Part shown: positions 11,604 to 55,964 of the stretch, piece after piece
Layout of the letters: every line of letters starts with the position of its first letter
How positions within the stretch are numbered: the stretch's first letter is position 1
Assembly (NCBI GenBank): GCA_051294905.1
Contig: CM119371.1
Coordinates: 19,098,001-19,162,000 of the forward strand
DNA: 64,000 nucleotides
Direction: 5' to 3'
From: Botryllus schlosseri
Taxonomy: Eukaryota
Notes under the pieces: model-generated
Told to the model about the DNA's origin: nothing
What the model saw: the letters and a program-made list of their open reading frames with translations, nothing else
The model's database searches: none
Position numbers and translations under genes: made by a program

Positions 11604-11605
11604 GT

Positions 11606-13145: not shown

Positions 13146-13837
13146 AACAAAAAATGTCGCACGAATAAGCATGGAACTTGAAATAGTACTAAAAGCACTA
13201 TCCAAGGTCAGTAGACATCAATGAAAAGACCAGAAAGAAGAAATCAGAAATCATTACCGAACAGGAATCATTTCAGCAATCATTTCAAAAGATACTTCAC
13301 TTGGATTCGCGTATAGAAAATGGCAACGTAACTCACATCAATTGATTACTATAAAAAAGAATACAACAAAATCTTTTCATATTTTGAGCATATAAAAATG
13401 AAGGGAATTAAGCGATCCATGGACAATTGGACATGAATGGACTAAAATCAATACACCCGATATATACTTGAGGTGTGCAGAGTGTATATCAAGCCAGATT
13501 CTACATCATACTGCATCACTGAGAACGCAGAAATAATACCATCAGGCAGTGATAACATACGATTCGAAACAAATTATCCAGGGATGCATTGCACGAGTCT
13601 TGACATCATTCTTCTTAATTTCTAATTACAAAATGATGTGGTTGCTAGTGATTGCTACGGCATTCATTGACGATGCTCTAGTTAAAGTAGTATACTCAAT
13701 TTTTAGTCTATTACAAGCAGAGATAACAATTTTATTGATGTGTATCAATTACTTGAAGCAGAACACTTGGCTACTAAAACCATTAAACTAAAGAATTCAG
13801 AATCGATCATCTACCAGAATCTCCAATCTTTTAGGCA

Positions 13838-34145: not shown

Positions 34146-35269
34146 ATACCCGAATCTGATATTCTCATACCTGTGCGTTACGCACCCATAGACTAAAACC
34201 ATAGCCTCTATAAAGGCTATGATAAAACATCCCCAACATTCTCCGACGTCGCTCGGCGATACTAGGAATATACCGTTCTTTCACAATTGCCAACATAATA
34301 AAATTAATCTCTGTAAATTATGCGTATTAAAAAAGTAGGGGATGCGCAGTTACGGCCTGCCATTTCCTTCTCTCCACCCTGCCTGCGTAAGCTACTAACT
34401 GAACAAGTTGGAACTTCCACAGAATCCAATGTTAGACAAGTTACTCAAATCAATTTGTATAAAAGAAAGGTAGGTAGGCTACATTTTCATGATCTAGCCA
34501 TGTTGTCATAACCATTTTTCTGTGTGCCTTTATTGTACCCAACACAAATGACCTCGGGTGGATATGCCCAAATTATCAACATGAGATCGCGCGAGGTGCG
34601 GAGAAATTTCTGCTATCGCAAGAAATTCAGCAAATATTTTATACATAATAAACCATCGCTCAAGAGCGGCCCAATCGCGCCGCGACGCATACTTTAAGAA
34701 CTATGAACTATGACATTTTACATAGTAATTTAATTAGGAATTGCCGATGTTGATACTTGTAAGTTTCAGCAAAAATTAAACTCATTCTAAGTTCAAGAAT
34801 ATTAATTTCTCTAAGACGTATCTATACTCGCGTCTCTTCAGATGCTTTCACGCCCCCAGTTTGAGACCATAGTGTTGGGATCAAGTCACTACCTTCGAGT
34901 CACGAGTCATTGCACATTTTGACTCGAATCAAGTCAAGTCAATCGATTTTCGAAGGTAACTCGAGTCAAGTCAAGTCACTCGATTTTTGGAGGTGACTGG
35001 AGTCAAGTCGAGTCAAGTCAAGTCACGAGTCAAGTCCCAATTCAAGTCAAGTTGCCCTTTCGAAGTATGAGGCATGATTACGTCATTGCATTTTGCTAGT
35101 TGTCTGAAATACAGATTGAGTGGTCATTGATTCTTAACCAATGAAAGAATATAGAGTTAAATATACACGCAAGAAAGCGCTGTATCGCTCACATATACGT
35201 AAAACTGCTCAACTACGTAAGTAATTCCGTATCATCATTTTATAGTTACCAGCCAAAATAGAGAATAGC

Positions 35270-35548
35270 TGCTATACATTATCCATTTACAAATTGATAT
35301 GATAGACTTTGAGCTTGCGCCAATGGTTGATGACTACTTAAAACTATATTCGAATTCAATTTCAATAAAACAAGAGGTTTGGTTAAGGTAAGAACAGAAT
35401 ACAATAAGATGCAATACATTACCCATTTGCAAATTGATATGATAGAATTCGAGCTTGCGCTCTTGGTTGATGTTGATGACTATATAAACTATATTCGAAT
35501 TCAATTTCAATAAAACAAGAGGTTTGGTTAACTAAACAGTACAATAAG
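35270..35548 (+). repeat. About 140-bp direct tandem duplication
   Basis: atacatta.ccattt.caaattgatatgataga...aacaagaggtttggttaa occurs twice. Confidence 0.8.
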
Positions 35549-36619
35549 TGTCGGATATAAGTCGCGGTAAACACGACTAACCGGTGGCGAAGCCCCCAGA
35601 AGTTTGGTCTATCCCCCTTCGAAGGGCCTGACGAAGTGTTGTTGTGGTCCTGCCATAAAATAATGCGGGAAGTTTAGGCTTCCCGCATGCTGCTATCCGA
35701 TCGTTGGCCCTATTCACATGTCTCGAGTTGGTCTCTGAAACCTACACACACAAAATAACGCACCAGCATTTCATTAACATTGAAAGCGTTTTTATTTGCT
35801 AGTTCGTTAAACCCACGGTCAGGGGCTGCAACACATCAACCACACGGGAACAGAATCAGCGAGATCAAACAGGAAATAAACATTGTTCGACACCACAAAC
35901 TCAAATTTGCTCTGGCCGCAACGTCATCCGCATTGCAGACATTGCGATATCACTTTTGTCCGAAGCATACATTAGTTGCCCAGATATCATTTTCTTCGAA
36001 ATGCTTCCAGCCTTGATGTATATTCGAGCACAACACATTCAACGACACAGATCCTGCAGACTACTAGCCGTCAATATACAATTTATCGCAAAAAATCGCC
36101 GTGCAACAATACCAATGACTGTAAAGCTGATTTCAAACAGCAATCAACATTAATGAATAGGTAATGCAGACGTGAGCGGTTACACTTTTTAACAGCAAAA
36201 GAATATTGCAAAGCACAAAAAATTGTAGATGTGGACGCAGTCTAAAATCATAACCACTTGAGTAAGTATAGTTTAAGTATGCAAAACTTACTCGAGTACT
36301 TCGAAAGAGTAGTATTTTGTTAGCGACCACTTCTGGTGACACTGCAGCAGAGGTGCCGAAAACAGTCATGGTTCGTACTCGAGTAGAGGTAGCAGTAACG
36401 CTGTATATTTCTACTCAAGTACAAGTAGTAGTGGAAAGTTTTCTAGGTTTCGTTTTGCTTTAAAACTATGAAGAAGTAGAAATACAATAGTTTATGAATA
36501 TGCAATAGTTTGTACAAGTATGCCCGACACGGTTCTTGGTGGCGCAATCACCAATCTCGTCTCGATCAGATAATTTGTAAAGGTACAGTCCAGGTCCGAG
36601 GTGCAGTAGAAAGTTGACT

Positions 36620-36744
36620 CAACACTTTGGAAGTTGGTGATGTGCTTCTCTGTCGCATGAAATAGTGTTTGCTCTTCGCCATAGGTGGCCAACGTTGCTG
36701 GCGACCATGCGGTGCTTCCATTTCAGGATGAATGGCGCTTACAC
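36620..36744 (-). pseudogene. PKA-C-like relic, last exon (copy 2)
   Basis: tttctttgccag|V*APFI..EMEAPHG..SN..ATYGEEQTLFHATEKHITNFQS. Confidence 0.72.
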
Positions 36745-39079
36745 CTGGCAAAGAAATGGCCGGCATTAATATATATCAGGGCGGGAATGTGATTGTTATT
36801 TTTATTACACCTGGAAAAAGGTAAGGTACAAAGATGGATGACGGTAAGACGGTGCAAAATCCAGTATCTAACCCGGTGACATAAATTTGAGTCGACTGTT
36901 TGAGTCAGTATTGGGATAACTCGAGTCATGACCGAATTCGGCCACATTCTTGAATGACTAGACCAGGCGTGTCAAACATCCGGCCCGCCAGATGATTTCA
37001 TCCGGTCCGCGAAGCAATTTCGAGTAGATTTAAAATATGTGCACATTTCTAACAAACATCGAGATTTTTATTGAGAAATACTTCATTAAATAACCCCTAA
37101 GACAGCAAATGTCGAGTATGTTCATTGCGGTTTCTAGTCACCATTAGGAACAAGTCGCTGACATTGACATCCAATTACGAGAACGCAATAAATTTAGTTT
37201 TTACTAATTGATTTTATTTAATTGATTAAATTTAGAGTTTATTTTACAAATTGATCAAAATCGAGTTATTCAGAGAAGCAAAAACGCCAATGCGAAACCC
37301 TTATATGCAGGTTACATAGAGAAAATAATAGTTGTAAAGAAATACAAATTGAAATATCTGTGGTTGCATTTCTGCTTCACTTCTGATTCACCCGAATCAC
37401 GTAATAATAATATATAATAGTATAATGAAGCTAATTCCAAAGTTCGCGTTTACAGCTAAAACCGGTGTCTTCCGTTTCAACGCATACGCAGGGTCGACGT
37501 CATTATACGACTAAAATAAAGGCTTTATAGAGAATAGAGATATGCCAACTTATACTATCGTTAGAGCCACTGCTCTATCGGTTTATAACTGTATTTAGCC
37601 TTCCTATCATCGCATCATAGCCAAATTCATTGTTTGCGAATAAAGGTGTTGCTAGAATTATACCCCTATGATCCGTAATATAATGTAATATATTGTGTAG
37701 GTTAAGTATTCAAATGAAAAACAAGGACATTGATTTTGAGGTGAAATATTGGAGTTTGGCACATCTGGACTATACTCTACTCGAATCACCACCCTAGACT
37801 GACTTGATTTGAGTCACTGCTAGGGCCGGGCCCAATTGAGTACCCGGGTGACTCGATTCCGAGCACAAAGTTCGAGTCGAATTGATTATCCTAGTCAAAA
37901 CTTGACTTGAGTTAGTCGAGTCCATATATTTCATACTTTTTTGGTGTCGTTATGTGAGATATTAGACTAGGCCTACTCAAATCGACTAGAAGCCTGATAC
38001 TCGATTTAGAATCGAATGACTTAACCCCTTGATTTTGGCCAGTCCGAATTATGGCATATGATAACACCGATAGTAACTTCATGAATGTAATAGCAACCTG
38101 GCGTTCACGAGGTGAACGTAGTCAACCACACATGGTCCTAAATAATTTCGTATCTCTGGACCGTGACTATTTAGTGACCGTTGCAAGTGTGAATCGGTAC
38201 ATGACATCAGTGTTGTGCCATGAATATTCGAAAGTACCGAGAAAAAATTTCTAGATGACGAATCGACTCTTATACTGCGTTCCCATGCATGGCCGATTCC
38301 GATTCTCTCGTTTTCGTGCAACTCGGCCAACGACCGAGAGAAATTCTGCTGCACAGCACACCCACGTCAGGCGACTTGTCAGACATCGAGTGAATACTCC
38401 GGCTTGGCCATTAGGCTGTCCTGGCATGGTTTCTTCAATCAGCTGGTTGCAGTTTGCTAGTTACAACACACTTTTCGTATCGAATTTACCATGGTTGACA
38501 CTCATGGCTAGGGCGATTTTTTTGACATGTCAAAAAAAAGGTCAAAATTAGCTCAAAATTGTTGCGTTGTGTCAAAAAATGTCAAAATTGTTTACAAAGT
38601 CAACATTTTTTTGCAACCTGCATTTCGTTTATATCGTAGATTTCACACTGTTGGTAAACTTGTCATTTATTATTACGTCTGGGTGGTCAATGGTCATGGA
38701 AACACAGCCGACATGTACAATGCACGCGTCCTGGCCTTTCAGTCACCCATGTACCGTGCAAGGAAAGAAATAATAGAGGCAAGTGCGTGTGAATCTGTTA
38801 CTCACTATCATTATCTCACTACTCGATTCAGCCCTAGTCGGCAGAGATGAGCAATTGATAACGGATTCGTGACTTTCCTAAGTAAATAGAACTTTCCATA
38901 GCTTACAATTTTTATGCTAGTTAGAAGGAATGTTAGAATCAGCATAGGACCTTCACTCAGATTAAGATCTCAAATGCAGAAAAGGATTTGGGTTTGGCCA
39001 TCTCCGGTGGTCAGTAACAAAGGATATTGCCAGTCTGTAACCGACTCAAAGTCGAAAGCTGTCAGATGTGTCCACTTAC

Positions 39080-39245
39080 TTTTCTCAGGAAAATAGCGAA
39101 TCAATCGATTGCCAAAAACCAGCGATGGTTTTTGGATGACGCTACAGTCATGTTTCAGGTTGCTGTATTTTTTGCTCATGTCGACCTGAAGGAGGCTGCA
39201 CAGACGATCTTTCAGCTCAGACATCATTTGAGATGGAAACAGGAC
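39080..39245 (-). pseudogene. PKA-C-like relic, VRFPSHF exon (copy 2)
   Basis: tctttttcgcag|VLFPSQMMSELKDRLCSLLQVDMSKKYSNLKHDCSVIQ/NHRWFLAID*FAIFLRK|gtaagt; 166 nt with a +1 frameshift. Confidence 0.9.
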
Positions 39246-39952
39246 CTGCGAAAAAGAGAAGCCCATTTGTATCTGGATTTGAAGACAGAAAAGCTTTCTA
39301 CTCTAGTGCAGATTTTTCAATAAACCAAGTTCTTGCAGGTTTCTGACACGATTTGAAAATTCTCTGAGATTAAAGCTCATGATTGAAATTGAAGTACCTC
39401 CAAGAAGCTGATCGAACACAGGATTACTGACTAGAGCAGGGGTCGCCAACTCAAAATGGGTCGTGGGCCACTCTTCGAAATTCATATGGGCCGCGTGCCG
39501 CATGACTTTATTATCGATATAAAAATATCCAACGCAGTGTAACAACCACGTTTGATAACTCTATGTCAGTACAACGCCGTGCTCTCTTACATGGGCGACG
39601 GCATAGTTACCACAAATGAAATAATATTTCATTGAAGAAATACAAATACCACAAAAAATATCATGATCATCAATTTCATCGACTATGTTGAACTATGAGC
39701 TGCGCACGATACCTGACAACACTCTTCAGCAACTAAAACGGGGTTGGCTAACCTTTTCGATATTCACGGCCACAATTCGACTACTTACCTAGCCTACGGC
39801 CGCATTTCAGTGCGTAGTCGTAATGAAATAACTGGTGGCCGAATATCCACATTAAACTGTCCATGTCGATGAGCCGGTCAACCCCGGAGTAATCTATTTA
39901 CTGGTATCGGCTTACTATGCGCACCGAAATCGTGAGTAGTCATGTTGTGAAC

Positions 39953-40480
39953 TAGAGGTCGACCGATTATCGAGGTCGATATTTGGAATTTTCCCGATTA
40001 TCGATATCGGCCTATGACGGCCGATATTTTATGTAGCCTATAAAAAAATCAAAAATATTGGAAATTCAAGGCTCTGTGTTCTCAATCTCATGAAATCCAC
40101 GACGCAAAGGGCGACACGTGACAGATTTAGCCTTGCAGGACGAGTTTAACTGGGTCAGCATGCAGAGAAACCATGCTTCCTGCATTACGATCTACCTCTA
40201 CTGGACCGATCTGCACTCCTGTATCACGTTTAGCTTTTTGGGTTATCTCAAATTTCAATGAATGTGCACAATTAAGCAATTATTCTTTTTAATTTCTGTT
40301 TTCTCGTTTGTTGTTCAGCTTTCGGTGGCGTACAAGTGCGATCTTGCCTAATATATACGATAATATTTTTTAGCGAAATGGTTCTCTGATCCTTCCATAT
40401 TATTATGATATCGGTTATCGTCATTGTGAGTGTGTCGATAATCGGTATCGGCCTGCAAAATCAATATCGGTCGACCTCTA
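39953..40480. mobile_element. hAT-like MITE (atcggc repeats)
   Basis: TIRs tagaggtcgaccgat / atcggtcgacctcta; perfect TSD ttgtgaac. Confidence 0.88.
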
Positions 40481-40831
40481 TTGTGAACATGTTCGATTTG
40501 TACATTGTACACGTATGCTCTATGTGTTCGCGCGAAGCGCAAACATTTTTTCGTATCCATGATTGAATTTCGCCAATAATATTAGTATAGTTTCACACAT
40601 TATTATCAAATATTTGTGTTGGGAAGTTATTCATGCTGCTGTGCTGAATTATTATATAGGTAATAAGGTAGTAATAAGAAGAAAAAAATTTCATGATAAA
40701 TTCACATCTACTAGTTAGAACTAAGCCAAATCTGGTGTACAACGTTTTATTAGCCAACCTAACGGTTTTTATCGAATTGCTAGATTTTTTTTAAATAACC
40801 ATCATTTCGTCACATTTTATAAGACTATTAC

Positions 40832-40965
40832 TTGTGAATATCCTTGCTGGTCGGTGAGTAGATTTTCAGGCTTTAAATCTCAGCACTCAGCAGTTTATGT
40901 CCACAAAGTGCAGGTCCTCGAAGTCTGACATGATTGTAGTGGCGTTGGTCATCGAGTGACGCTCG
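40832..40965 (-). pseudogene. PKA-C-like relic, catalytic-loop exon (copy 2)
   Basis: ttcttatcacag|c-ERHSMTNATTIMSDFEDLHFVDINC*[7-nt dup]DLKPENLLTDQQGYSQ|gtaat. Confidence 0.9.
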
Positions 40966-41279
40966 CTGTGATAAGAAGCATAGTTATAAGCACCAAATCT
41001 CAGAGATATGCTTGGAACTTATGAGGTACCTAGGTTAGGGTCGGCCAACCCGTGGCCCGCGAGAAGGTCTGAATATCCCGCGAGGTAATTCTCGAAAATT
41101 GTTGTATTATAAAAAAAAATAACCTAGGTAATATATTTTGAACTTGCCTGGCTAACCGATAATTTGATTTGCCTGACCGCAAAATTTGGGATGCCGATGA
41201 CTTAAATATCAGTTCTGTCGCGTTGGCGTAGCCAGTCAGCCAGGCGCAGGGTAGGGGCCAGCCACATTTTCGTGAATCT

Positions 41280-42597
41280 TTGCATATGACCCTAAAGTAG
41301 AATATTTCGTGGCAGATTTATTTGACTAGAAATTTTACTTACAACTTCACATGATTCAATGTCACTCGATTTCTCGGTTTTTGCATTGGTACTAGGGTTG
41401 GGACTTCGGGATCGAATTTGAAATCCCGGGATCGGGATTTCCGGGATTTTCGCTTCTCAATCCCGGGATTTCCCGGGATTAGCAAAATAGTAAAATACGC
41501 ATAATGCAAGCTACATAAACAACATTTATTCCTTGTAATATTGATTCCCAACTGCGGCTCCAAGGTAGCCTTCTTGCGGCTCTGAGTGACCTCTAAATAT
41601 GCCACAAAATATAATGGACGACAGTTGTTGTTGTTTGTTTCTATATATAGTTATAGGCAATTTTTGTATATGAATGCTGAAATGAGGAATACTAGATATC
41701 TCTAGAGCCGTCCAAGGCCGCTTCTGAAAACAGAGAAACAGAATTCTCGCAGACTAACGTCAAACGCACGGAGGAATACCCGTCAGACAACGACATAATC
41801 TTGAGTTCTGCTGCTCGTAGACCTATCGTATTTTTGAAGAGTAAATTACGACACAATTTCACTAACAATAAAATAACGGCTCATAGTCAAGTATAAATTG
41901 CAATAAGTCCAATATTTTTCATAGAATAATCCTCCGCAAACTTGTGTATCAAGTGCTGGAATGTATGAAGAGGTATCACATAACAACAAAATAGTATGTT
42001 GAGTAATGATATGCATTTTCAATTTATTTCAATGTATAGCACTTGCCTATCTGCGTCTACCAATGCTAGAATAACAGATATACAATCTGTAGAAGTCTAT
42101 GTGCAATTGTGCATGTAAATACTTTTGAGTTTGCTAGATGGTGAGATTTAGAGGTAGGTTTTCAGATACCTTTAGAATCAGTATATAGTCTAATCGGGTG
42201 TTTTAATGAGGCTCCCTGCGTATACTATGAAGTTTGAAATGCGGCTCCGACATTCAAATTGGTTAGGAACCACTAATAAAGAGTATCATCGCTTAGACGG
42301 TTTCGTAATTTGTTGGCGAAATATCCTTAAAATATGGGCGGGGGCGCCAGACATAGGCCATTTTCGAAAAGGGGCGCTGTAGGGACGTAAGGTTAAAAAA
42401 CAATATTTTAGACAACTTGTCTAGTTTTTGACACTGCTTTATTACCACAAAATGACGCATGACGTTAGTAAGCCCTGGTAGATGCTGTTCACAAATCCCG
42501 GGATTTCATTGGGGCTAATCCTGGGATCGGGATTGCTTCAAATCCCGGGATCCCGGGATCGGGATTTCCCGGGGTCCCAACGCTAATTGGTACCCTC
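41280..42597 (-). pseudogene. PKA-C-like relic, alphaC exon (copy 2), interrupted by a MITE
   Basis: Acceptor tttagttcacag at 42598-42599; after removing 41393-42585 reads EIE/TLN..IF*S/INLP. Confidence 0.55.
41393..42585. mobile_element. hAT-like element with atcccgggat subterminal repeats
   Basis: tagggttgggac ... gtcccaacgcta; perfect TSD attggtac. Confidence 0.88.
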
Positions 42598-42701
42598 CTG
42601 TGAACTAAATATATATGCCATATTCACAGAATTGAGTTTAACTATATTCACAATTATGAGAGAACGTGTCGTCCAACATGCGACTTAGTGTCTGCACTCA
42701 C

Positions 42702-42802
42702 GGAAGGATTGTCCATGCTGAAATCTTGGCACAAAATGATAGACACCTATCTTGTAATGATATGTCCAAGCAGCGAATAATCCTGTCCCTTCCAAATGCA
42801 CC
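42702..42802 (-). pseudogene. Possible PKA-C-like glycine-loop exon remnant
   Basis: GAFGRDRIIR...FCAKI then donor |gtgagt, about 100 nt upstream of the next kinase-like acceptor. Confidence 0.4.
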
Positions 42803-43794
42803 CAGCGGCATACAGAGGCGACCCGCAATATGCGCAATGTTATTTACCGAATTTACTAATTAACTTTATATATGTTTAGCGCTTCTCGCGGCTAGGATAT
42901 GAATGAACACATAGTTTTAATGATATAATTAAGATCGTAATAAGGAAAGTCTTGTTTTCACCATTACCTAATCCGATTTTCTCTTATTGGACAACTAAAA
43001 AAGGTCATCAACATTCAAGTGACCCACGCAATGGTTCGTAAATATCATGTGGCCCGTCGACCAAAAATCTTGGCCAGCCCTGCCTTAGGCGCTATGTAGT
43101 TTATTGCAGCAAACAATACGCTCATATTGTTAAATTTATTCCACTGGAAGCTTTTCGACTGGCCAATATTACTGCAATATTGAAGTCCTGCACTTCTAAA
43201 AGCCTATGTAGTTTAGCTTGCCATAATTATTTCGACACAATGGAAAACTATGTATCAGGATCTGTCACTGGTAACATGACACTTAGGAAATATTGATATT
43301 TACCAGAATACAAATCCTAATCCTCACGCCGTTTACCATACCTGAATTTGATGAATTGACGTCATCGTCATAGATTTTCATAGTCTGACGTTTCCCTATT
43401 ATTAGGCTACACTAAAAAAGAGGGGTAGAGGTCAAATCAGTCTTCTTAGTGATTTCATACCTTGCTTTGATCTTGACAACAACAATCACTGCCGTTTGTT
43501 ATGTATTTTGGTTGGATGAAAATAAAAACTCTTTTCTCTCTCTCTCTCGAACGAATATATTCAGCAACCATATTCTTGATAACTACATGACAATTTCACC
43601 AAAAGAGAATTATACTGTTATGTGTAACAGTCTCCGCTATGTTTTGCTGTGAAGCCGGTGACCGCATTCAGTACTACAGAAAATTCATTTATAGAACCTG
43701 CTAACGTTGTCACAATAAACCTCATAAGCATCGCATAGATTTGAAGTGATGACGTAGGATCATGATCAGTTAAGATGGGTCAAAAGTTGAGTCT

Positions 43795-44255
43795 TGGGAT
43801 TTTGATGGTTGTAGCCGAATTGCTTTTGTCATCGTCATCAATATTAGATCCCATCACACAAGAAGTGGATCTCACGTAGTTCAAGATAGTGTAAGTAGCC
43901 TACACATAACACTAACCACAACTGCAATGAAAAAAGACAAAAACATTCACATTCAGAGACAAGTGTTCGAAAAAAAAATCAGAGCTAAACATAGGAAACA
44001 CAAAAATCACCTCTCCAAACCAATCGTGGGGATTTTGATGGTTGTAGCCGAATTGCTTTTGTCATCGTCATCAATATTAAAATTCTATCACACAAGAAGT
44101 GGATCTCACGTAGTTCAAGATAGTGTAAGTACACATAACACTAACCACAACTGCAATGGAAAAAGACAAAAACATTCACATTCAGAGACAAGTGTTCGAA
44201 AAACAAATCAGACCTAAACATAGGAAACACAAAGATCACCTCTCCAGACCAAACG
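43795..44255 (+). repeat. About 230-bp near-identical tandem duplication in ZF 3' flank
   Basis: gggattttgatggttgtagccgaattg...aaatcacctctcca occurs twice; single diverged copy at ~49250-49465. Confidence 0.85.
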
Positions 44256-44460
44256 TGGAAAAACACCTCATTAGAAAGCCCCCCTCTTCTGTGTTAGTCC
44301 TTATGGTAAATTGGGATTTTAACATCTTCATGTTAGGGTGGTAACCTGGCCATTGAAGTCATTTAGGACAAGGCCCGCAGCTATAACTCTATCCAGTGGC
44401 ATGCATATCCATATGATTCTTGAGATCAATCATTCATGTAAATTATTCACCCAAAGAATC

Positions 44461-45720
44461 TCACTTACGATTTCCTACACTAATATGATTATCAAGATGT
44501 CTTCTCAAACTCGATTTTGAAGTTAATTCTTTTCCACAAACATCACATTTATGATTCTTGACACCAGAATGGAACTCTAGGTGCTTATTTAGTTGACCTT
44601 TTTGCGCAAATTTTTTTCCACATACATCACATTTATGGATTTTGATGCCAGCATGCATGGTCATGTGTGTCTTGAAGCTACTCTTTCTCACTTCTTTCCC
44701 ACATACATCACATTTGTGATTTTTGATACTAGCATGAATAGCATGATGCTGAACCAAGCTTGATTTCCAAGTAAATCCTTTACCACAGACTTCACACGTA
44801 TGGCATTTAACACCTGCATGCACAGTCATGTGTAACTTTAGGCCATGCTTTCGCAAGAATTCTTTCCCACAAAAATCACAGTTATGGCTTTTGACACCAG
44901 CATGCATGATCATGTGTTTCAGCATGTACCTTTTCAGGAATTCTTTCCCACAAATATCACATTTTTGATTTTTGATACCAGCATGCATGGCCATGTGTCC
45001 CTTAAGACCATCATTCCGCGCAAATTTTTTGCCACAAACATGACATTTATGATTCTTGACACCAGAATGGAGATCCATGTGCCTCTTTAGGCTACTTTCC
45101 TGAGTAAATATTTTTCCACATACACCACATTTATGGTCTTTGATACCAGCATGCATTTTGAGATGCAATTCTAGGGCACGTTTGAAAGTAAATCCTTTTC
45201 CACAAACATCACATCTATGGCTCTTGACACCCGTATGCATAGCCATGTGCGATCTGGGAACTTCTTTCAGCGCGAATACTTTTCCACAAACAACACATTC
45301 ATGGCTGTTGATACCAGCATGAATAGCCATGTGCTTCGTCAGGGCTCCCTTCCTCACATATTCCTTTCCACAAACCTCACATGGATGGCTTTTTAAATCG
45401 GCATGAATAACCATGTGTGCGTTGAGTTCACTATTTCGCTTGAATACTTTCCCACAAACCTCACATTCGATGCTTATGAAATCAGCATGTATAACCTTGC
45501 GTTGCTTGAGGTCACTCTTCAGTGGAAATGTTTTCCCACAAACGTCACATTTGTGATTCTTCACATCATCATGAATATCCATGTGAGGCTCCAGGTTACT
45601 GTTGCGACTAAACTCTCTCCCACAAACACAACAGCTGTGATGTGTGATACCGTTATGCATTGCCATGTTTGTGCTGTTTACGAGTTTTTTGATGAATAGC
45701 CTAATAATAGTCGAAGTCAT
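44461..45720 (-). CDS. Poly-C2H2 zinc-finger protein, subtype B, 14 fingers (one lacks a His)
   Basis: Open 419-aa ORF; upstream acceptor AG seen in paralogues is mutated here. Confidence 0.8.
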   Translation of the reverse strand: MTSTIIRLFIKKLVNSTNMAMHNGITHHSCCVCGREFSRNSNLEPHMDIHDDVKNHKCDVCGKTFPLKSDLKQRKVIHADFISIECEVCGKVFKRNSELNAHMVIHADLKSHPCEVCGKEYVRKGALTKHMAIHAGINSHECVVCGKVFALKEVPRSHMAMHTGVKSHRCDVCGKGFTFKRALELHLKMHAGIKDHKCGVCGKIFTQESSLKRHMDLHSGVKNHKCHVCGKKFARNDGLKGHMAMHAGIKNQKCDICGKEFLKRYMLKHMIMHAGVKSHNCDFCGKEFLRKHGLKLHMTVHAGVKCHTCEVCGKGFTWKSSLVQHHAIHASIKNHKCDVCGKEVRKSSFKTHMTMHAGIKIHKCDVCGKKFAQKGQLNKHLEFHSGVKNHKCDVCGKELTSKSSLRRHLDNHISVGNRK

Positions 45721-46766
45721 GAAAAATAGATTAAAAAAGCACGATTATATTGTAGCCCGATATTTCAACAGAAAAAATTACATAGATTGCACAGAAAACA
45801 TTGTGCTATGACTTGAATGAGCACATTAGTATTATTAGCTATTGTTACTGACAAACGAATGATGGCACCCAACATCTTCAACTCAGTTTCATATACGTTT
45901 CACATATTAGTCGTAAGTATATCTGTGAGGTGATCAAGCTAGTGTTAAGTCACGGTTATTCATACAAATTTCTTATTTGTGATGCTTTATAGATGTTGGC
46001 TTCAGGTGCACTTTGCGAGGTTTTACAAAAAATGTTGCATTTAGTATTGACCACCATGAATAGGCATGGAACTTGAGATAGTACTAAAAACACTATCCAA
46101 GTTCTGTAGTCATTAATTAAATGACCCGAAAGAAGAAGACATGAGAAATCATTACCGAGCTGTCATCATTTCAAAAGATACTTCACATGGATTTGTGTAT
46201 AGAAAATTGCTATGTCTACCCTACATAAAATTGGCAACATAATACACATAAATTGATTACCGAACTATAAAAGAGAATACAACAAATCTTTCATATTATG
46301 AGCATATGATAATGAAAGGAACGAAGAGATCCATGAACATGAATGGACTAAAATCAATACACCCGGGGTCCGGATATGTACTTGAGATGTGCTGAATATA
46401 TCTCAAGTCAGATTGTATGTCATATTGCATCACTGAGAACGCATAAAATCAAACTTCATAATTTCATATTACAAAATGATGTAGAGATTGCTCTAGTAGT
46501 CATTGATGACGCTTTAGTTGAAGCAATATTCCAAATTTCCACTTTTTACAAGAGAACGATTTGCATGACATGCATCAATTACTTGACCCAGAACACATGG
46601 CTACTAAACCCACTCAACTATACATAATGATATGACACCATTAACTCCAGGATACACTCGCAATGTTGCTCAGTTAGTCCATTTCTGCAGATTTGGTAGA
46701 GTGAAAAGGGAGCTGACATGCGAAAAAGATGCTATCACAGAAATGATCCTCAAAGTCAGTTGCTAG

Positions 46767-48055
46767 CAGAGGTGGTCAGTAACGAAGTACTTCTACTTTT
46801 TCGAAGTACTCGAGTAGATTTCCTCTACTTCTGGTACTTACTCAAGTAGATATGATTTTCTCTACTTCTACTTCTACTTCGTAATATTTTGTGATCTACT
46901 TACTTACTTTTCGCTATTTTCAGTTTGTCAAGTAGAAGTAGTTTAGTCCCCCAATACGAAAGATAGCCTGAGGAATTTTTGGGCTGTTTTCACGGAGTAC
47001 CAACATTTAATATTCATAAAAGTCAAGTAAAGACCAGAAATTTTGTTGCGCTGCGCGCACAGTAGCTTTGGAGACACAACTATGTTTTCACGAAAGTATC
47101 AGTGAATATAATTTAGGTACCGGATTGCTTGGTTCCGCTCACACCGCATTGTCGCCCATATCAAATATTTCATCACAGTAAACATGGCCCACTATAACGT
47201 TTGAAACTACCGTTTCGCAATCTAGCAATTATACCTATCATTTCGTAATCTGACAGCACATAATGACGTGTCCTGCTATTCTGGAAAATCCGTTTTTTTT
47301 AATGTTACGCCTGTTTTAGCAGATCACCTTTAAAGCTTTATGAACAAAAGACATGAAATATATTTTCCGCTTTTTAGAAGTGGTATTTGTATTTGACTTT
47401 TGATTCCGAGTATGATACTTTGCGCTCTAATTACTATCAGTTCTTTTTTCTGCAGAACATACATGTTGAAGCATTACAACAAATGTAATGCCTCTATTTT
47501 CCGAAAATAAAGCTACACTAAATATAACTTTTCAGTTCCACAATATTTGTTATCAACATATCAACGTATAATCGTGCAAAGTGTTGAAACCGTATCCGAT
47601 ACAACTTCTCCATATTGCTCTTCGCCTAAACTCGGGGCCTTAGATTATGCAGTAGGGCGTCATGCCCCCAGATTCCCTAAAACAGGGTATTCTAGTAATC
47701 AATGGGTTAGTAGCGCATTTTCATATCAATAATATTACTTGCATCCCATGATGCGAAAGAATGCTTATTCTGTCGAAAATTGATTCCTTCTGGGATACAT
47801 CAATACGAATCAAACCCTTTGCACCTTCCGCATAGCTCAATTTGCAGCTTTTGACAGTTTATGCGAGGGAATTAGGACTGTTTTCAAAACTACTTACTTA
47901 CTTGAGTAGATTTAAAGTCAGTCAATTCTATTTCTACTTCAAGTAGTTTCAGGTGGCTTCTGGAAGAAGTACTTCTACTCGTACTTGAGTAGATTTTTTC
48001 CTCGCTACTTCTACTTCTACTTGAGTAGCTTTCTTGACTATTTTGACCACCTCTG
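46767..48055. mobile_element. hAT-like element with (ctactt)n subterminal repeats
   Basis: TIRs cagaggtggtca / tgaccacctctg; perfect TSD gttgctag. Confidence 0.88.
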
Positions 48056-49892
48056 GTTGCTAGTGCCCGTCAGCGATAGAGAATTTTCAAATTTCTCAAT
48101 CCGCCCAGCTATGGCTAGCAATTTGAAATTCTGAGTGGGAATAATCCGCCCGGTAAGTGGGGTTGATTTTAAAACAAAAATCAACTTAAAACAAACATGT
48201 TTAAAACAAGGCCATTGTTTAAAACATGTTTTTCCTTGGTTTTTATGCCATGACGTCACGAATATTCAACGTGACGTCATAGTGGATTGATACTCACAAT
48301 TAAAAATATTGAGTAAATATACCTCCTTTGCCAAATTATATGTACTATTGCTGTTGAACCGACTATTTTGAGGGTTCCAACCATGCCATATCGATATACC
48401 TGGGCTATATCGGGTGGTAATTGTACGTAGGCTCATACAGCATGATTTTTGAAAAGTATTAACACAATTTTGGCATAATTTTACAATTAGAAAAAAAGAT
48501 TCAAAAAGCCTCTGTTTCAAACACCGTTTGTTTTAAATGCAACCCTACTGGTAAGTAACAATATTTTTGACCAAATTCATTATTACCTTTGCGAAATTTT
48601 AGCGCTTCTCACAGCTAGGACAAGAATGCACACCGAGTTTTCATTACAGAATTGTTATCGATTTTGATGCATAGTAAGTCTTGTTTTCACCGTTACCTAA
48701 TCTGGTACGCCCCTATCGGACGACTAAAAAAGGGCACGGTTAGTAAATATCATTGGCCCTCTGACCGAAAAGGTTTACCACCCCTGAAATAGGTCCATGC
48801 CAGAAGTAGTTTTCACAATGGAAAACAAAATATCCGGATCTGTCACTGCCAACATGACACAACAGAAATATTGAAATTGACTGTAATATAAATCCTAATC
48901 CTCACGCCGCAAAAAATTACTGTACCTAAATTTCATGAATTGAAGGAATTTTCAGATCTTGCAGGTCTGACGTTTCCCCATTATAAGGGCAACACTAAAG
49001 AAAATGGGGTAAAGTTCAAACCATTTTCTTGATAACCACATGATAATTTCATCAAAACAATATTATGCAGTGATGCGTTACAGCATCCACTATTTGTCAG
49101 ACTGTAAAGCTGGTAACCACATTCGCTCTATGACAGGAAATTCATTATTGGATCTGCCAACATTCACAATGAGCCTCATAACCATCGCTTAGAACCGAAG
49201 TGATGACATATGATCATCATTAGCCAAGATGAGATAAAAGTTGTGTCGTCTTGGGATTTTGACGCTTGTGGCCGTGTTATTTTCGTCGTCGTCACCGTCA
49301 CCATTATTAGATCTCATCAAACAAGAATTGAATCCCATGTATTTCAAGATTGTGTAAGTACACAAAACCCTAACCACAACTGCAAGTGAAAAAATACAGA
49401 AACATTCACATTACAGAGACAAGTGTTTGAAATATGAATCAGAGCTAAACATGGAAAACACAAACAAACACCATTCAATCAAATGTGCAAAAATGGGTCA
49501 TTTTCAGAACTTTGTCGATGTAACTGGTTGGACATAGCAACCGTGGACTGGTTAGCAAGCTTCTCTCTACAGTGTTAGGCCTCGCGGTAAATTGCGAATA
49601 AAAAATCTCCATTTTAGGGTAGCGGTGAAATAGGAGGCGGGCAACACACAGGATTTTGAGCAGCTCGCTGACAGTTTCCGGCACGCAGCTCTGGACTAAA
49701 TATATTTGCAAGCAAGTAATTTAGACTATGAGCAAAACAAGATAAAGTGGCATTCCAATAATGACTAATGTTCACTTGCAATCTTCAATAAAGGTTTATA
49801 CGTCCGACATGACCACATATTTTTTTGCTTCAATAGTGATTGAAGTAGGCCTACATTACGTCAAGTCATTGACTTCTGCTTTTGGTCTGTAT

Positions 49893-52730
49893 CAGGAATC
49901 ACCCCAGGTAGCCCGTGAGGACCATACGAGTAGCCCGCGACCCTGTTGTAAAAATAAATCGAATACCAACATTCACCAATATATGTCAGCTTATTACCAG
50001 TGAGCTTTTAAATATATAGATTGATTGATTTAGCTATTCTTGTTTAAATCACACTAACATGTACCGGCAACTTACAAATGACAATGCATGTATATAAACA
50101 CTTAAAATGATGATATCAAATATCCTCAATTACAACTGGTAATATACCAACATGTAATAGAATCACAAGATATCGAAGACGTAGGATGACATGACAGAAT
50201 GCCATCGACGGTCTTTTTGAAATGACGGGGGCTCTGTTATAGTGGCTCGACGTCAAGGACAATTCCAAAGTAGAAAACAACATTACTATTCGGTAGCAGA
50301 TAGCCGTTAAGTACTAGCCGATTTTCAATGTCTGTATGCCCATTGCGTGTTACATCTTTTGAGACAGCTTGTTCCTCTTGTTTAGTACCATGTATTTAAC
50401 TTTCTGTGATCGTTGCTGCTCTCCGGTATAATCAGAATTTGTCATGCTTGGATGATGAACAGTTGGGGATTGGAATTGTAACACTGCAAAATGACCTCCA
50501 CTTCATATCCCACAACAAACTTTTGGTGCCTTGTTGACACGGAAAAGTACAGTGGTGTATGCGCAGCAGCTATGAAGGTTGCAAGCATGTTTGGTTCAAC
50601 TTATGGTTGTGAATCAGCCTTTTCGGACATGAACTTCATCAGAAACAAACAGCCTTTTGGACATGAACTTCATCAGAAACAAACACAGAACACGCCTCAC
50701 TAATGCACATCCGAAACACTCACTCAGAATTGCAGTGTCAAGTTACATACCGGAGTACAGCGCACTAGACATGACTTGCATGCAATGACATGCTTCCCAT
50801 TGACCGATATAGAAACAGATAACATGATGTACATGTCCAGTCTTAAGTGTGACATGATATATTTTAAAATTTGACTTGACCGTTGTTGTACAATTTATAC
50901 AAACAACCATTGTTGTATAATTTATACAAGCATGGTGTGAAGTACAGTCATCTCCCAGTTAAGTACGCAACTTGATCCTGAGTAGTTTGTGCGAACTTAT
51001 GTGGTGGACCGTAATTAGCAGATATACAGCCACCTGGGGTACCAAATTCACAAATTTTGCATTTATTAGCGTAGTCATTGACGATGCGTTACCCATGTGC
51101 GGTTTTGTATGCCATTCTTTTATGCTGGCGTACAGTACAGCACAAGAAATTTGTTGGGTACAATGTTCTCGTTCGCATGATGTCAAGTAAAGATAAGTGT
51201 TGGAGGAAGTGATGAATCCAAAAGATTGGAAGTCATCGTCAAGTTATGTGTGTCGTCCGCTCCGAGTAGAAGTCTCGCAAGATAGTATGGCGTGAGTGAC
51301 GCTGCTATCTGAAAGATTTTGAAAAACAGGGAAGTTATTCGAAGGCGTTCTGCTTTGATGTCTGAGGAGACAACGACAAAAAGTTTCGAACATCCGTTGG
51401 TCGGTTTCCTGAGTCGGAAGATATTCTATATCTTTGGATTGATAGCATGCACCGTGTAAGTCTTCCCGTTCCCCCCTCACTGATCATTGCAAAAGCAAAA
51501 CATCGCTCAACAATTATCGATATCAGGAGATGATTTTAAGGCATCGTGTGGCAGTGGCTTGGCCGATTCATAGCACAGCATGGACTGCAGAAAGTTCTTC
51601 CTCATGGTGAAGGAGATGGGATAGAAAAGAAGACCCAAATGATCCACATTCTATAATTGCTCGTGTGATCCTGAAAATGCGTATATCATGGTTTGACACA
51701 GGGTTGTTTTTCCGTCTGCTACCTACATTTACCTTGCTTATGCCATTCGAATATCTCAGCAGCATCCGAGGGAAGAAGAAAGCTTAACACCGTATGTCTC
51801 TGGTTGTTTGTGCAAATGCCACAGGAACACACAAAGTTCCATGCACATTGATTGGGAAGCCTAACTCTCCGGCCTGTATAAGAAATTGGCGATTCACAGT
51901 CGAGTTTTAGTGATGTGAATGAGATGTTGAGAACGATGCAGACTGAAAATGACACTGACGACCATCATCTTCTTGTGAGACCCCCAGTTGGTATCTGTGT
52001 GTATCTACTTTATTCCGTTACCTCGGCATTTTTTGTGTATATTGTTATTGACCGTGACGTAAAAGGCCGTCATTCGATAGGCGCCATTCCTTTTGTTTAA
52101 TAAACAACAACAACACTGACGATGATGCTGGCCCAAGCAACAATTGTGCCATTTTCATAGCTTCGAACAACTTTAAAAGAAGGTGTTTCAAATTGAGGAT
52201 CAGTTGTGTGTCCTGCCTAACAAGATCAAGCAGCAGATGCTTACTATAATCTCCAACGCACTTTGGAATGCTTTCTGTGACGGGTGACGTGGGAAGCCAA
52301 GCAAAAAAGAATGCAAAATATACATCAGATGACTTTGCACGACATGTTCAGGCATTGAACTTTAGTTAAGTTGACGTTCAACTTTTCCTGACATCTAATC
52401 CTCTGTTTAAAATGAATGAATTGTTGAAAAAGTTGAACCCAGAATTTGTGAATAAATATTGCGTACTTATCTGGGATGCGAACTCAAACGGGTGCGTACT
52501 TAACCGGGAGTTAACTGTAATTCATGATTTCTCAAAAAATTAAATTTCATGATTTCAAAGACTCTCTTAGAATAGAAGTCTTATTACAATGTGATTCTTG
52601 CCCAGTGCTATGAATCTCAAAGCGGAAATTTAGTCTGGTGCGGGTGAACGACGGGAGTAAATTGGCAGCCCGTCGCTTCATTCAGTACCCAAGATACAGC
52701 TCTTGATTGCAAAAAGGTTGGTGACCTCTG
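49893..52730 (+). mobile_element. Charlie/Spin-like hAT transposon remnant
   Basis: Ends caggaatcacc / ggttggtgacctctg; TSD gtctgtat/gtttatat; 50491-50760 encodes SMFGSTYGCESAFSDMNFIRNK..RTRLT..LRIAVS. Confidence 0.8.
50945..52517. mobile_element. TA-flanked Tc1/mariner (pogo/Tigger-like) TIR element nested in hAT
   Basis: ta|cagtcatctcccagttaagtacgca ... tgcgtacttaaccgggagttaactg|ta. Confidence 0.7.
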
Positions 52731-52984
52731 GTTTATATGCTTGACACTTGAAGTTTACTCCAACTACGATTTACCGCTATAGTATGTACGTGGATGAATA
52801 CACAATCGAGTCAGGAAGCCGGCCTGCCAAGTGCTTCATTTTTCCATATCCGACCCACCGGAAGAAGTAGTTACCCGCCACTGAGCTTAAGTAATTCGGG
52901 ATAATGACCACAGCTCTAATTCTATCCACCGGCATGCATGTATGTATAAATCCATTGATCAATCATTCATGAAAATTCTTTGCA

Positions 52985-54493
52985 TCAAAAATTAAACTTA
53001 CGATTTCCTACACTAGCATGAATGTCTTCTCTCTGAAGATGTCTTCTCAAACACGATTTTGTAATGAATTCTTTTTCACATACATCACATTTATGATTCT
53101 TGACTCCAGAGTGAAATTTTAGGTGCCTCTCGAGGTTACCTTTTTGAGTGAAGTCCTTTCCACAAATTTCACATTTACGGCTTTTGATGCCAGCGTGCAT
53201 GGTCATGTGTGTCTGGAACTGACTATTGTTCAGGAATTCTTTACCACATATATCACATTTGTGATTTTTGATACCAAGATGCATAGCCAGATGCACAGTC
53301 AAGCTTGCTTTCCGAATAAATCCTTTGCCACAGACTTCACACAAATGGCTTTCACCACCAGCATGCACGGCCATGTGTGACTTCAGGCTGTTTTCTAGCA
53401 TGAATTCTTTCCCACAAACATCACAGTTATGGTTCTTGATACCAGCATGCATGGCTATGTGTTTTTCGAAGCTGTTATTCTTCAGGTATTCTTTCCCACA
53501 AATATCACATTTATGGTTCTTGATACCAGCATGCATGGCCATGTGTATTTTGAGGTTAACATGATGCACAAATTTTTTCTCACAAACACCACATTTATAA
53601 TTCTTGACACAAGAATGGATATCTATGTGCATACTAAGTTCACTTTCCTGACAAAATGTTTTTCCACATATATCACATTTATGATTTTTGATACCAGCAT
53701 GCCTTTTAAGATGCAAAGTTAATGTAGATTTGAAAGTAAATCTTTTTCCACAGACATCACATGTCTGGATTTTGTCACCAGAGTGAATAGCCATGTGTGT
53801 CTTGAAGTCACTCTTTCGCAAAAATTCTTTTCCACAAACATCACATTCATGGCTTTTGACACCAGCATGAATAGCCATGTGATCCGTGAGGACTCCCTTC
53901 CGCGTAAATTTCCTTCCACAAACATCGCATTCATGGCTTTTGACACCAGCATGAATAACCATGTGTTGTCTGAGACCACCCTTCAACGCGAAATCTTTGG
54001 CGCAGACCTCACATTTATGTCTTTTGACAGCAGCATGCATAGTCATGTGACTCATGAAGTCTCCCTTTCGTATAAAATCCTTTCCACAAACATCACATTT
54101 ATGGCCTTTGAAACCAATATGACAAGCCATGTGTTGATTGAGCTCACCCTTTCGCTTGAATACTTTTCCACAAACCTCACATTCATGGATTCTAACATCA
54201 GCATGCATAACCTTGTGTGTCTTGAGGTCACTCTTTTGTACGAAATCTTTTCCACAAACATCACATTCGTGGTTTTTGACACTAGTATGAATAGCTACGT
54301 GTTGCCTCAGGCCACCCTTCTGCTTGAACACTTTTCCACAAATCTCACATTCGTGGCATCTGAAACCAGCAACCATGTTTGTCTTGAAGTCACTCTTCCG
54401 TGCAAATGCTTTCTCACAGACACCAGCATGCATATCAACGGGTGACTTGATTGCGAATTTCTTGATGGATAGCCTACTAATAATCGAAGTCAT
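52985..54493 (-). CDS. Poly-C2H2 zinc-finger protein, subtype B, 16 complete fingers plus one partial
   Basis: Open ORF; acceptor ttttttaatccag at 54500-54501 followed by ATG (MTSII) at 54493. Confidence 0.88.
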   Translation of the reverse strand: MTSIISRLSIKKFAIKSPVDMHAGVCEKAFARKSDFKTNMVAGFRCHECEICGKVFKQKGGLRQHVAIHTSVKNHECDVCGKDFVQKSDLKTHKVMHADVRIHECEVCGKVFKRKGELNQHMACHIGFKGHKCDVCGKDFIRKGDFMSHMTMHAAVKRHKCEVCAKDFALKGGLRQHMVIHAGVKSHECDVCGRKFTRKGVLTDHMAIHAGVKSHECDVCGKEFLRKSDFKTHMAIHSGDKIQTCDVCGKRFTFKSTLTLHLKRHAGIKNHKCDICGKTFCQESELSMHIDIHSCVKNYKCGVCEKKFVHHVNLKIHMAMHAGIKNHKCDICGKEYLKNNSFEKHIAMHAGIKNHNCDVCGKEFMLENSLKSHMAVHAGGESHLCEVCGKGFIRKASLTVHLAMHLGIKNHKCDICGKEFLNNSQFQTHMTMHAGIKSRKCEICGKDFTQKGNLERHLKFHSGVKNHKCDVCEKEFITKSCLRRHLQREDIHASVGNRKFNF

Positions 54494-55964
54494 AGAAAAC
54501 TGGATTAAAAAAGCAAGATTAGATTTAGCTCGATATTTCAACAGAAAAATTACGTATAATAGACAAGTATTGGTTATCGACAAAACTGAGAAGTCCACAT
54601 GGATTACACAGAAAACGCTGTGCTATTATTTGAATGAGTACAATCGTATTCTTGGCTATTGTTTTCAACAAACGAATGACGGCACCCAACATCTTCATCT
54701 CAGTCTCATATATGATCCACATGTTCGTTATAAGATAAGTATAACTATGAGGTGATCAAGTGCTAAGTCAAGGTTCTTCATACAAATTTTATATCTGTGA
54801 TCTGTGAAAGATGTTGGCTCAAGGTACACTTTGAGAGGTTTCACAACAAATGCCACAATTAGTATTGGCCAACATGATGAACCATGGAACTTGAGATAGT
54901 ACTAAACGCATAGGCACCGAGTTGCGGGATGGCGGAGCACCCCCATGACACGTTTATGGCGTGGCGGCCACCCCATACAAAGTGCTTAAACGCCCGCCGT
55001 CTGCGATTTCAAATTTTTGTATAATTCTATTGTCTTGCTAGTTCGATACGACATCAGCCCAACGAGATCATCATATTCTGAATTTATTGGATAAGTGTGA
55101 GCAGGAACCTTCTATGTTCCAATAAACTTCATTGCTGGATGGACTCTATCGGGTGCAACTATATCGCGGATCCAATTTCAAACCATCGGGATTTCTATTT
55201 CTATTGATCGGGTTGCGGCATGCGCTCATATTGCCCTTGCTGCAATAACACCTGGATAATTAAAATCGCACAATTACACGATCAAATTCGACTGGCTGAT
55301 ATGAAGCAGCGCGTTGTCGGCATAAAAACCCTAGGTGCGTAGCCACTGGGAGTTTCTCATTTATAGCTAGAAATCCCGTTCTTTTGAAATGCCAATTCAC
55401 TAATTTGTATTGATGCTGCGTACTGCAAATTAGCGAGAATCATTTGTATGCGAAATGAGTCATTGGCATCTGAAGTGCGCTGCGCTATCGTCGCTTATTT
55501 GATTTAGCACGTCCGAATGCAGGCCTGCATGCTACAATAGCTGGCATGAACTATCACGTGCACCAGACTAGGCCTGATATCGTTGGTTACCAGCCTGAAC
55601 TGGTCCGTGGACATATTAGCATGCGACACAATAGCAAGCGACACTTGAGCATGCGACACTTGAGCATAGCGACTTTTGGTCATGGCGACTCGTGGGCATC
55701 TAGACACATGAGCACAGAGACATATTAACATGAGGACATATTAGCATGGGGACACATGAGTATAGGGACACACGAGCATGGATACACGTGAGCATAGGGA
55801 CACATCAACATGCCACTGGAGCATGGTGACACATGAGCATGCGATACGTGAGCCTTGACGACACATGAGCATGGGTACACAAGAGCATGGGCACACATGT
55901 GCATATGGACACATGGGCATATGGACACAAAAGTAAATGTGTACATGAGCATGGGGTCACGTAC

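Follow-up and report, generated by a model that had tools for sequence, protein, structure and literature searches.

Unprocessed pseudogene fragments ride in tandemly expanding C2H2 zinc-finger (ZF) clusters. Such fragments (for mammalian KRAB-ZF clusters see PMC11952569 and PMC2865497) were used as a comparison system for a locus in 64,000 nt of Botryllus schlosseri DNA (hereafter the window), where a relic of a gene for the catalytic subunit of cAMP-dependent kinase (PKA-C) lies downstream of a ZF gene. Like those fragments, the relic bears introns, decays neutrally and was co-duplicated with ZF genes amid transposon insertions; it differs in its invertebrate chordate host, in a ZF open reading frame (ORF) for which Pfam gives fingers only, and in having PKA-C as the passenger.

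Soberg et al. (2013, PMC3625193) report that every invertebrate they studied, the tunicates among them, has a single close PKA-C homologue, and that PKA-C exon structure is the same in humans and tunicates. On that account the relic would be an extra, dead copy, and the sizes of its exons are unsurprising. Secondary PKA-C copies, some of them frameshifted pseudogenes, are likewise described there for primates (PRKACG) and marsupials (the C-alpha-II retroposons). These are intronless retrocopies, whereas the relic lacks that mark of a retroposed copy and keeps its introns, indicating that it came by DNA duplication and not by retroposition. Compared with the PRKACA/PRKACB family and its invertebrate orthologue, the relic is alike in sequence, exon order, boundaries and phases (exons 6, 9 and 10), but it holds only three of the ten exons and all three are disabled. 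In a literature search, with most subscription papers outside its coverage, neither a PKA-C pseudogene of an ascidian nor ZF transcripts containing kinase pseudo-exons were the subject of any paper found. We consider it probable that the locus is a dead, intron-bearing PKA-C fragment (exons 6, 9 and 10), likely a genomic duplicate of the animal's own gene; a second round of copying, in which its ZF neighbour was included, likely took place when the fragment was already dead.

Exons 6, 9 and 10 of the PKA-C relic

The catalytic-loop exon (exon 6) spans positions 40965-40832 of the minus strand, with 134 nt, phase 2/0 and canonical splice sites (acceptor ...tcacag, donor gtaata). The preliminary description of this DNA had reported a 134-nt catalytic-loop exon with a 7-nt duplication that retains DLKPENLLTDQQG, and both points were confirmed: this reading is present in the exon, and the tandem duplication (40879-40892, minus strand), which shifts the frame, is private to this copy (copy B). 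Its absence from the sister copy A indicates that 127 nt is the ancestral size of exon 6. The codon ahead of the catalytic Asp, at the position of an Arg, is a stop. A nucleotide profile built from 80 PKA-C coding sequences matched this exon with an E value of 2.3e-13.

Exon 9 (39245-39080, minus strand) has canonical splice sites, phase 0/0 and a +1 frameshift, and the same profile matched it with an E value of 2.2e-19. Its size, 166 nt, is the one given earlier for a "VRFP exon"; the motif itself reads VLFP, and a stop lies inside the exon, at the Trp303 codon, as it also does in sister copy A. In the spliced alignment with the PKA-C protein P0023, 28 of 56 columns were identical. The exon 9 translation matched 56 sequences in the PDB (best E value 3.8e-05), every one of them PKA C-alpha or a fusion of it. 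The coding part of exon 10 (36744-36620, minus strand, 3' end approximate) begins at an acceptor at 36744, its second codon is a stop and a frameshift is present too; here the profile gave an E value of 0.002, against 1.8 for the best match in the reversed-window control. The protein scores of the three exons were reached by none of 60 shuffles.

The exons lie 1.6 kb (6 to 9) and 2.3 kb (9 to 10) apart and keep 39-50% identity. Spliced alignment placed the boundaries of the relic at residues 140 (phase 2), 182, 255/256 and 310/311, bearing out the near-ancestral exon sizes claimed for it. We take the residue-140 boundary to be that of the PKA-C orthologues, and the human figure of 127 nt, which depends on the 5' end of exon 6, is presumed in view of the acceptor in the relic and of the spliced alignment. 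The size of 165 nt and the 3' end of exon 6 were verified against partial sequences in the literature; those of lamprey and wallaby PKA-C break after residues 182, 255 and 310. None of the 80 loci in the profile set is a full genomic gene and one relevant boundary could be checked in them; locus L080 has an alternative last-exon junction after residue 310. Judged by sequence and exon boundaries, exons 6, 9 and 10 are descended from a PKA-C gene of the PRKACA/B type.

Likeness to the Ciona protein was noted by eye in residues of tunicate type (SELKD, HRW, ID before Trp303 and an ATEK/STEK tail). As a homologue query, a 48-aa piece of exon 9 gave no match at E<=10; a representative search gave two matches, one leading to canonical PKA-C proteins and the other, an unrelated immunoglobulin, being discarded. 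None of the metagenome PKA-C sequences was conspicuously similar to the relic; the highest overall value was about 64%.

Because of its stops and frameshifts, the relic cannot code for a kinase. A functional PKA-C has exons 2-10 in an open frame, with a Gly loop, Lys72, a catalytic loop, DFG and Thr197; that set is incomplete here, and what is found instead are introns at the parental positions, disabling mutations and neutral evolution (as judged by a test whose ZF control was itself non-significant, see below), as in an unprocessed pseudogene.

The missing exons and the insertions upstream of exon 6

Exons 2-5, 7 and 8 were not found in copy B by spliced alignment, tblastn, profile search or shuffle tests, and the profile search of the whole 64 kb gave no match to exons 2-5 below an E value of 0.6. 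Spliced alignment also returned weak "exons" ahead of exon 6 and in the interval from exon 6 to exon 9; these differed between two queries and were discarded. An activation-loop match by tblastn at 36393-36316 was also rejected; it falls beyond the 3' end of exon 10 in sequence that resembles a repeat, its score was 46 where the best match in the reversed window had 43, and the profile search did not return it.

The preliminary description had placed a G-loop exon and an alphaC exon upstream of exon 6, split by a MITE. Both candidates are contained in an old insertion at 41036-43082, which has imperfect terminal inverted repeats of 13 nt and a decayed 8-bp flank duplication, and which, from this end structure, we presume to be of hAT type. 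The 8-bp flanks agree at 5 of 8 positions in B, and the 5' flank of unit C agrees with the 3' flank of B and A at 6 of 8. Portions of the insertion are common to units at 11.3-11.6 kb and 48.6-48.8 kb. A transposase remnant was sought with Pfam in 10 short and decayed stop-free frames of the element in B and of its equivalent in A, with no relevant match. The supposed MITE is a real, younger insertion nested at 41393-42585, with an exact 8-bp target duplication; the sequence that it splits could not be upheld as kinase exons.

The G-loop candidate (42802-42702, minus strand) shows 4 identities in 10. Shuffling of the 170 nt picked by hand for it reached its score in 5 of 100 cases, and 14-29 of 60 shuffles did so when four PKA queries were run against the whole insertion. 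The alphaC candidate likewise scored at chance level (23-50 of 60 shuffles), even after the inner insertion had been removed in silico; a transposase tail, which it may resemble, was considered for it, and Pfam was blank. Neither candidate was matched by the nucleotide profile, and the best score in an atlas search with the G-loop candidate, 0.78, was uninformative.

These results bear on the possibility that the ZF gene was inserted into a complete PKA-C duplicate, with exons 1-5 upstream of it or within 41.0-43.1 kb, possibly carried by a transposon. The two candidates do stand in the correct order, a donor-like gtgagt and an acceptor-like site lie about 100 nt apart, a short alphaC-like run of residues was seen by eye in both copies, and the depth of sample X5 at 42659-43018 is that of a single copy. 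However, the scores remained at chance level with four queries, spliced or unspliced, and the profile search that gave nothing for exons 2-5 below E 0.6 was applied to a relic whose exons 6, 9 and 10 keep 39-50% identity. We regard a complete duplicate as very unlikely.

The sister copy and the divergence of the units

Unit A (0.5-12.4 kb) and unit B are homologous and collinear in their exons, introns and old insertions, with intron blocks 75-83% identical. On the minus strand, copy A retains exon 6 (11208-11085, 124 nt, profile match), a remnant of exon 8 (10596-10482, profile E value 2.8e-05) with no counterpart found in B, exon 9 (5910-5765, 146 nt, found by spliced alignment and profile) and exon 10 (622-497, 3' end approximate, profile match). 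To the eye, a stretch of copy A near 10.7-10.6 kb suggested exon 7, but it was rejected, its score being at chance level (75 of 100 shuffles). Unit C has no kinase exon, though it retains the spacer and a part of the insertion. In the independent sample X5, contigs of single-copy depth with few differences run across exons 6 and 9, indicating that the locus is not an assembly artefact.

The kinase copies of A and B diverge neutrally. Their differences in exons 6 and 9 fall at codon positions 1, 2 and 3 in the numbers 13, 13 and 16 (p 0.52), the codon changes are 5 synonymous and 30 non-synonymous, and the exons are 83.5% identical against 80.4% for the introns (p 0.27). The positive control, ZF-B against ZF-C, gave 66, 66 and 82 differences (p 0.13), without a significant excess at third positions, which means that the codon test is of limited power at this locus. 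The five splice sites of B are all canonical, with the same dinucleotides in A. This pattern counts against a wholly dead fragment; a rough hand estimate of its probability under neutral decay, biased by the route through which the exons were discovered, is 0.03-0.15.

The tail of exon 10 departs from this divergence. The tract at 36127-36803 is 91.8% identical to positions 3-681 of the window (copy A), as against 81.0% for the other shared blocks, which suggests later gene conversion; from the sequence comparison, gene conversion or a later re-duplication is the likely source of the tract.

The zinc-finger gene and the RNA evidence

The open 14-finger C2H2 ORF reported on the same strand as the relic was corroborated by 14 Pfam zf-C2H2 matches. 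This ORF, ZF-B, lies at 44461-45744 of the minus strand (first ATG at 45720), Pfam gives only fingers in it, and RNA reads show that it is transcribed (depth of about 0.2-2). The distance of 1.7 kb stated between ZF ORF and relic holds for the G-loop candidate (1.66 kb), and not for the first real kinase exon, which is 3.5 kb away. Two AATAAA motifs (43140 and 43105) stand between ZF-B and the relic. A donor-like site is present at 44469/44468, just ahead of the ZF-B stop, and ZF-C has one too.

The earlier account implied a ZF-kinase fusion, and a common strand, a spacing of 3.5 kb, intact splice sites and a catalytic-loop motif that is still legible are what a fusion protein, or a pseudokinase, encoded now or recently, would leave. 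Nevertheless, the ZF ORF terminates at its own stop, and the donor-like site has phase 1, out of frame with all three kinase exons (phase 2 would be required at exon 6 and phase 0 at exons 9 and 10). Each kinase exon is interrupted by both a stop and a frameshift, the exons for the N-lobe, activation loop and alphaF are missing, and divergence is neutral. As a weaker point, none of the 120 ZF homologues listed (of 2,932) has a Pfam kinase domain, none of them being close and only 230-734 aa having been searched. The fusion or pseudokinase reading is extremely unlikely, and for this haplotype it is already contradicted.

The dead exons would have a different role if ZF transcripts, or a long non-coding RNA, had taken them over as non-coding 3' exons that are spliced in, a reading that we hold to be unlikely. 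An equal degree of doubt attaches to its corollary, that the relic supplies a terminal exon and a polyadenylation site and keeps its splice sites while the coding frame decays. Part of the evidence comes from X6, which is RNA by inference only. Record 9 of X6 begins exactly at the first base of exon 10 of copy A, at the acceptor, and matches copy A over 342 nt with 23 mismatches and 8 gap letters (with B, 24 other letters and 8 gap letters, for 343 nt). A branch at this point is expected from spliced and unspliced forms if the upstream exon does not end in G, and exons 6 and 9 end in A. This hints that exon 10 of copy A is still spliced in RNA; an acceptor apparently in use there would mean that the family of kinase relics is not wholly silent. 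On the other hand, a contig end does not amount to a junction; contigs may also stop at a heterozygous site or where coverage drops. Furthermore, the contig belongs to copy A and not to copy B; it passes unbroken through two stretches of at least 31 nt shared exactly with B, as would be expected, indirectly, if the tail of B is absent from X6, and both X23 reads at 36193 bear the base of A.

With respect to B itself, X21 reads at 35668-36334 are biased to the minus strand (1.55 vs 0.31), an AATAAA lies at 35796 and the splice dinucleotides are all intact. The zero depth of X6 at 43672-44338 fits an intron after ZF-B, or a short or weakly covered 3' UTR. The donor-like sites ending ZF-B and ZF-C also speak for splicing, but the ZF-C contig (record 16) reads straight across the same site, and the motif may be a decayed finger linker. 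No ZF-to-kinase link was found among the 15 joints listed of 838, over 20 kb at 90% likeness, a search swamped by repeats. In the wider form of this proposal, dead kinase exons are captured by the ZF genes of the cluster and spliced on at their 3' ends, with the PKA-C relic providing the terminal exon and its poly(A) site, an exon that gene conversion keeps alike between copies. We judge this quite unlikely; if true, new ends of ZF genes would arise repeatedly from kinase pseudo-exons.

The relic makes no kinase, and copy B most likely does nothing. For the dead, intron-bearing fragment that we prefer, a DNA-level duplication would first have brought a ZF gene and the 3' half of PKA-C together, with the kinase part downstream. 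The fragment would then have decayed, and an element of hAT type would have entered ahead of exon 6. Next, the block of ZF gene and relic would have been duplicated, in tandem or segmentally, to give units A, B and C. Exons 7-8 would subsequently have been lost from B, which also acquired the 7-nt duplication and more insertions, and the exon 10 tails of A and B would have been homogenised, probably through gene conversion.

The relic is thus best described as a fragment of an unprocessed pseudogene, ordinary debris that matters little in itself and helps to date the duplications of the ZF cluster. It illustrates that a gene reported as single-copy in invertebrates still leaves duplicated debris. 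If its exons were spliced onto ZF transcripts, the locus would offer a testable case of pseudo-exon recruitment in a fast-evolving family of transcription factors.

Identity and sizes of the kinase exons

As recommended in the preliminary description, copy B was subjected to spliced, frameshift-tolerant alignment, using as queries PKA-C proteins retrieved from the database. Three exons with canonical splice sites were placed on the minus strand: exon 6 (40965-40832, 134 nt, residues 140-182, phase 2 to 0), exon 9 (39245-39080, 166 nt, residues 256-310, phase 0 to 0) and exon 10 (36744 onward, from residue 311). None of 60 shuffles matched the score of any of them. A nucleotide profile built from 80 PKA-C coding sequences recovered exons 6, 9 and 10 at E values of 2.3e-13, 2.2e-19 and 0.002 (best value in the reversed window, used as control, 1.8), and the homology stopped no more than a few bases from the splice sites. 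The sole PDB matches of the exon-9 translation were PKA C-alpha chains (56 sequences, best E 3.8e-05). The 7-nt duplication described in the catalytic-loop exon is present (40879-40892) and is not found in the sister copy A. In X5, a run from another sample, the record 3 contig over exon 6 (40584-41066) exceeds the corresponding window sequence by 7 nt.

The 5' end of human exon 6 gives this exon a size of 127 nt, and such an end is consistent with the phase-2 acceptor present in both relic copies. The 310/311 junction was also seen in another PKA-C locus, L080. According to PMC3625193, the number, lengths and phases of the PKA-C exons are identical across human, amphioxus and tunicates. A partial lamprey sequence in this source, without exons 7, 9 and 10, shows a break after residue 182, a 32-residue gap and an end at residue 255, and a partial wallaby sequence stops at residue 310. 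The lamprey break settles where exon 6 ends, and the lamprey and wallaby ends give an exon 9 of 55 codons (165 nt). The exons absent from wallaby are given there inconsistently ('exons 1 and 9' versus 'exons 1 and 10'); the sequence itself, in the supplement, agrees with the absence of exons 1 and 10. The accessible part of PMC5526564 does not give the sizes at issue. The sizes proposed earlier (127-nt ancestral and 165+1) hold: the 165 nt follows from the published partial sequences, and the 127 nt is in keeping with the acceptor. They are expected of any young tunicate PKA-C duplicate. At sites where Ciona departs from vertebrates, the relic residues, compared by eye, are those of Ciona PKA-C in the PMC3625193 supplement, which fits a copy of the animal's own PKA-C gene.

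The missing exons and the probable insertion at 41.0-43.1 kb

The G-loop and alphaC exons of the preliminary description were not upheld. The G-loop candidate aligned over 10 residues with 4 identities; when its own 170 nt were shuffled 100 times, 5 shuffles equalled its score. After the inner 1.2-kb insertion was excised in silico, exons 3, 4 and 5, tested with four queries singly or spliced, scored at chance (14-55 of 60 shuffles equal), alphaC included. No profile match to exons 2-5 at E below 0.6 was found anywhere in the 64-kb window, and none to exons 7 and 8 in copy B.

Imperfect inverted repeats enclose both candidates, one at 43082 and the other at 41036; their flanks agree at 5-6 of 8 bases. 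Hence, 41036-43082 is read as one old insertion, putatively of a type that we take to be hAT; Pfam gave no transposase match in it. Since the part at 42659-43018 is single-copy today, the interior may be captured or unique.

Zinc-finger units and their transcription

The window, animal DNA with ~40% GC, carries numerous short transposon insertions and, on the minus strand, a tandem series of multi-finger C2H2 ORFs. Four runs were compared with 35001-55000 in one go, and the result was dominated by repeats. The 15 joints listed, of 838, include none from a ZF to a kinase exon or between kinase exons, at low read depth. Run X6 drops to zero depth over 43672-44338, a stretch that X5 covers at single-copy depth, from which we infer that X6 is an RNA run. 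Near-identical X6 contigs cover the ORF of unit B, ZF-B (44627-45061 and 45345-45656), and its upstream region (45967-46664); on this inference, the ZF gene is transcribed. Four to five units have in common, with 70-79% likeness, a non-coding stretch of about 1 kb 5' of the ZF ORFs (45700-46660, 54473-54906, 18426-19484, 12293-13790 and 59193-59597). This stretch probably belongs to the 5' UTR or lies close to the promoter, because the upstream X6 contig covers it in unit B. By library convention the second mate is sense; if so, the reads of run X21, all on one strand in unique bins, fit the minus strand.

The spacer below ZF-B (43796-44258) contains a tandem duplication of ~233 nt, 94% identical, which is single in unit C. 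At 55.5-56.7 kb, a tandem array of a 15-nt unit contains long open frames in either strand, and a related inverted array occurs ~1.6 kb off, at 58.0-58.6 kb. The 1.77-kb stretch 50830-52599 is missing from X5 and X6 contigs and two X21 reads, a pattern suggestive of an insertion within a repeat.

Relationship between the copies and fate of the kinase exons

The relic of unit A (0.5-11.2 kb) retains exons 6, 8 (part), 9 and 10, immediately downstream of a truncated ZF ORF. Collinear intron blocks (75-83%) are common to copies A and B, as is the 3' end of the old insertion. No kinase exon occurs in unit C (~48.6-54.6 kb), which does share the ZF, spacer and 5' end of the insertion. In unit A the 6-finger ORF was truncated by a deletion, at 11595-11634, that fused it with the old insertion midway along the latter. 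A donor-like site occurs at ~11502, which is 290 nt 5' of exon 6. A possible 3' half of exon 7 followed by GT (7085-7128, minus strand; profile E 0.029, 8/14 identities) lies in copy A between exons 8 and 9, out of order and without counterpart in B.

A stop at Trp303 is present in both copies, indicating that the gene had died by the time they diverged. In exons 6 and 9 the differences are distributed 13/13/16 by codon position (p 0.52), a blunt test, since the ZF-B versus ZF-C control was not significant either (p 0.13); the changed codons are 30 non-synonymous versus 5 synonymous. Exons (223/267 identical) are not better kept than introns (1020/1268; p 0.27). The tail 36127-36803 is 91.8% identical to 3-681 (619/674), against 81.0% elsewhere (1243/1535; p 1.7e-11); this tract begins sharply ~60 nt upstream of exon 10 and continues past the window edge. 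As it takes in intron and repeat-like sequence, selection seems a less likely cause than conversion or re-duplication.

Dead exons could have been recruited as non-coding 3' exons, which we consider unlikely and for which the support is indirect and concerns copy A only. Exon 10 is spanned by one of the 8 X6 pieces listed, of 4,209, and this contig belongs to copy A by its length and differences (24 letters and 8 gaps observed versus 23 and 8 computed). It starts exactly at the first exon-10 base of copy A (window 497-622), as it would if spliced and unspliced forms met there, although it is a contig rather than a junction and other causes exist. This suggests that some transcript still acquires the last kinase exon of copy A by splicing. 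The contig runs unbroken through two stretches identical in A and B, which hints that the tail of B is absent from X6. The B locus itself is confirmed in another sample by X5.

A ZF-kinase fusion protein is highly improbable; for this haplotype, phase mismatch, stops and missing exons rule it out. Joining the phase-1 donor-like site of ZF-B (44469) to exon 10 (36744-36565) would give an open non-kinase frame of 59 codons, probably by chance; the equivalent frame in copy A shuts after about 18 codons, as judged by eye.

No report of this locus was found in the literature searched; the closest paper (PMC3625193) found one PKA-C gene in each of the invertebrates examined. Pseudogene fragments of this class are common, and we regard the locus as quite probably an unprocessed PKA-C pseudogene fragment carried in a duplicating ZF unit and inert in copy B.
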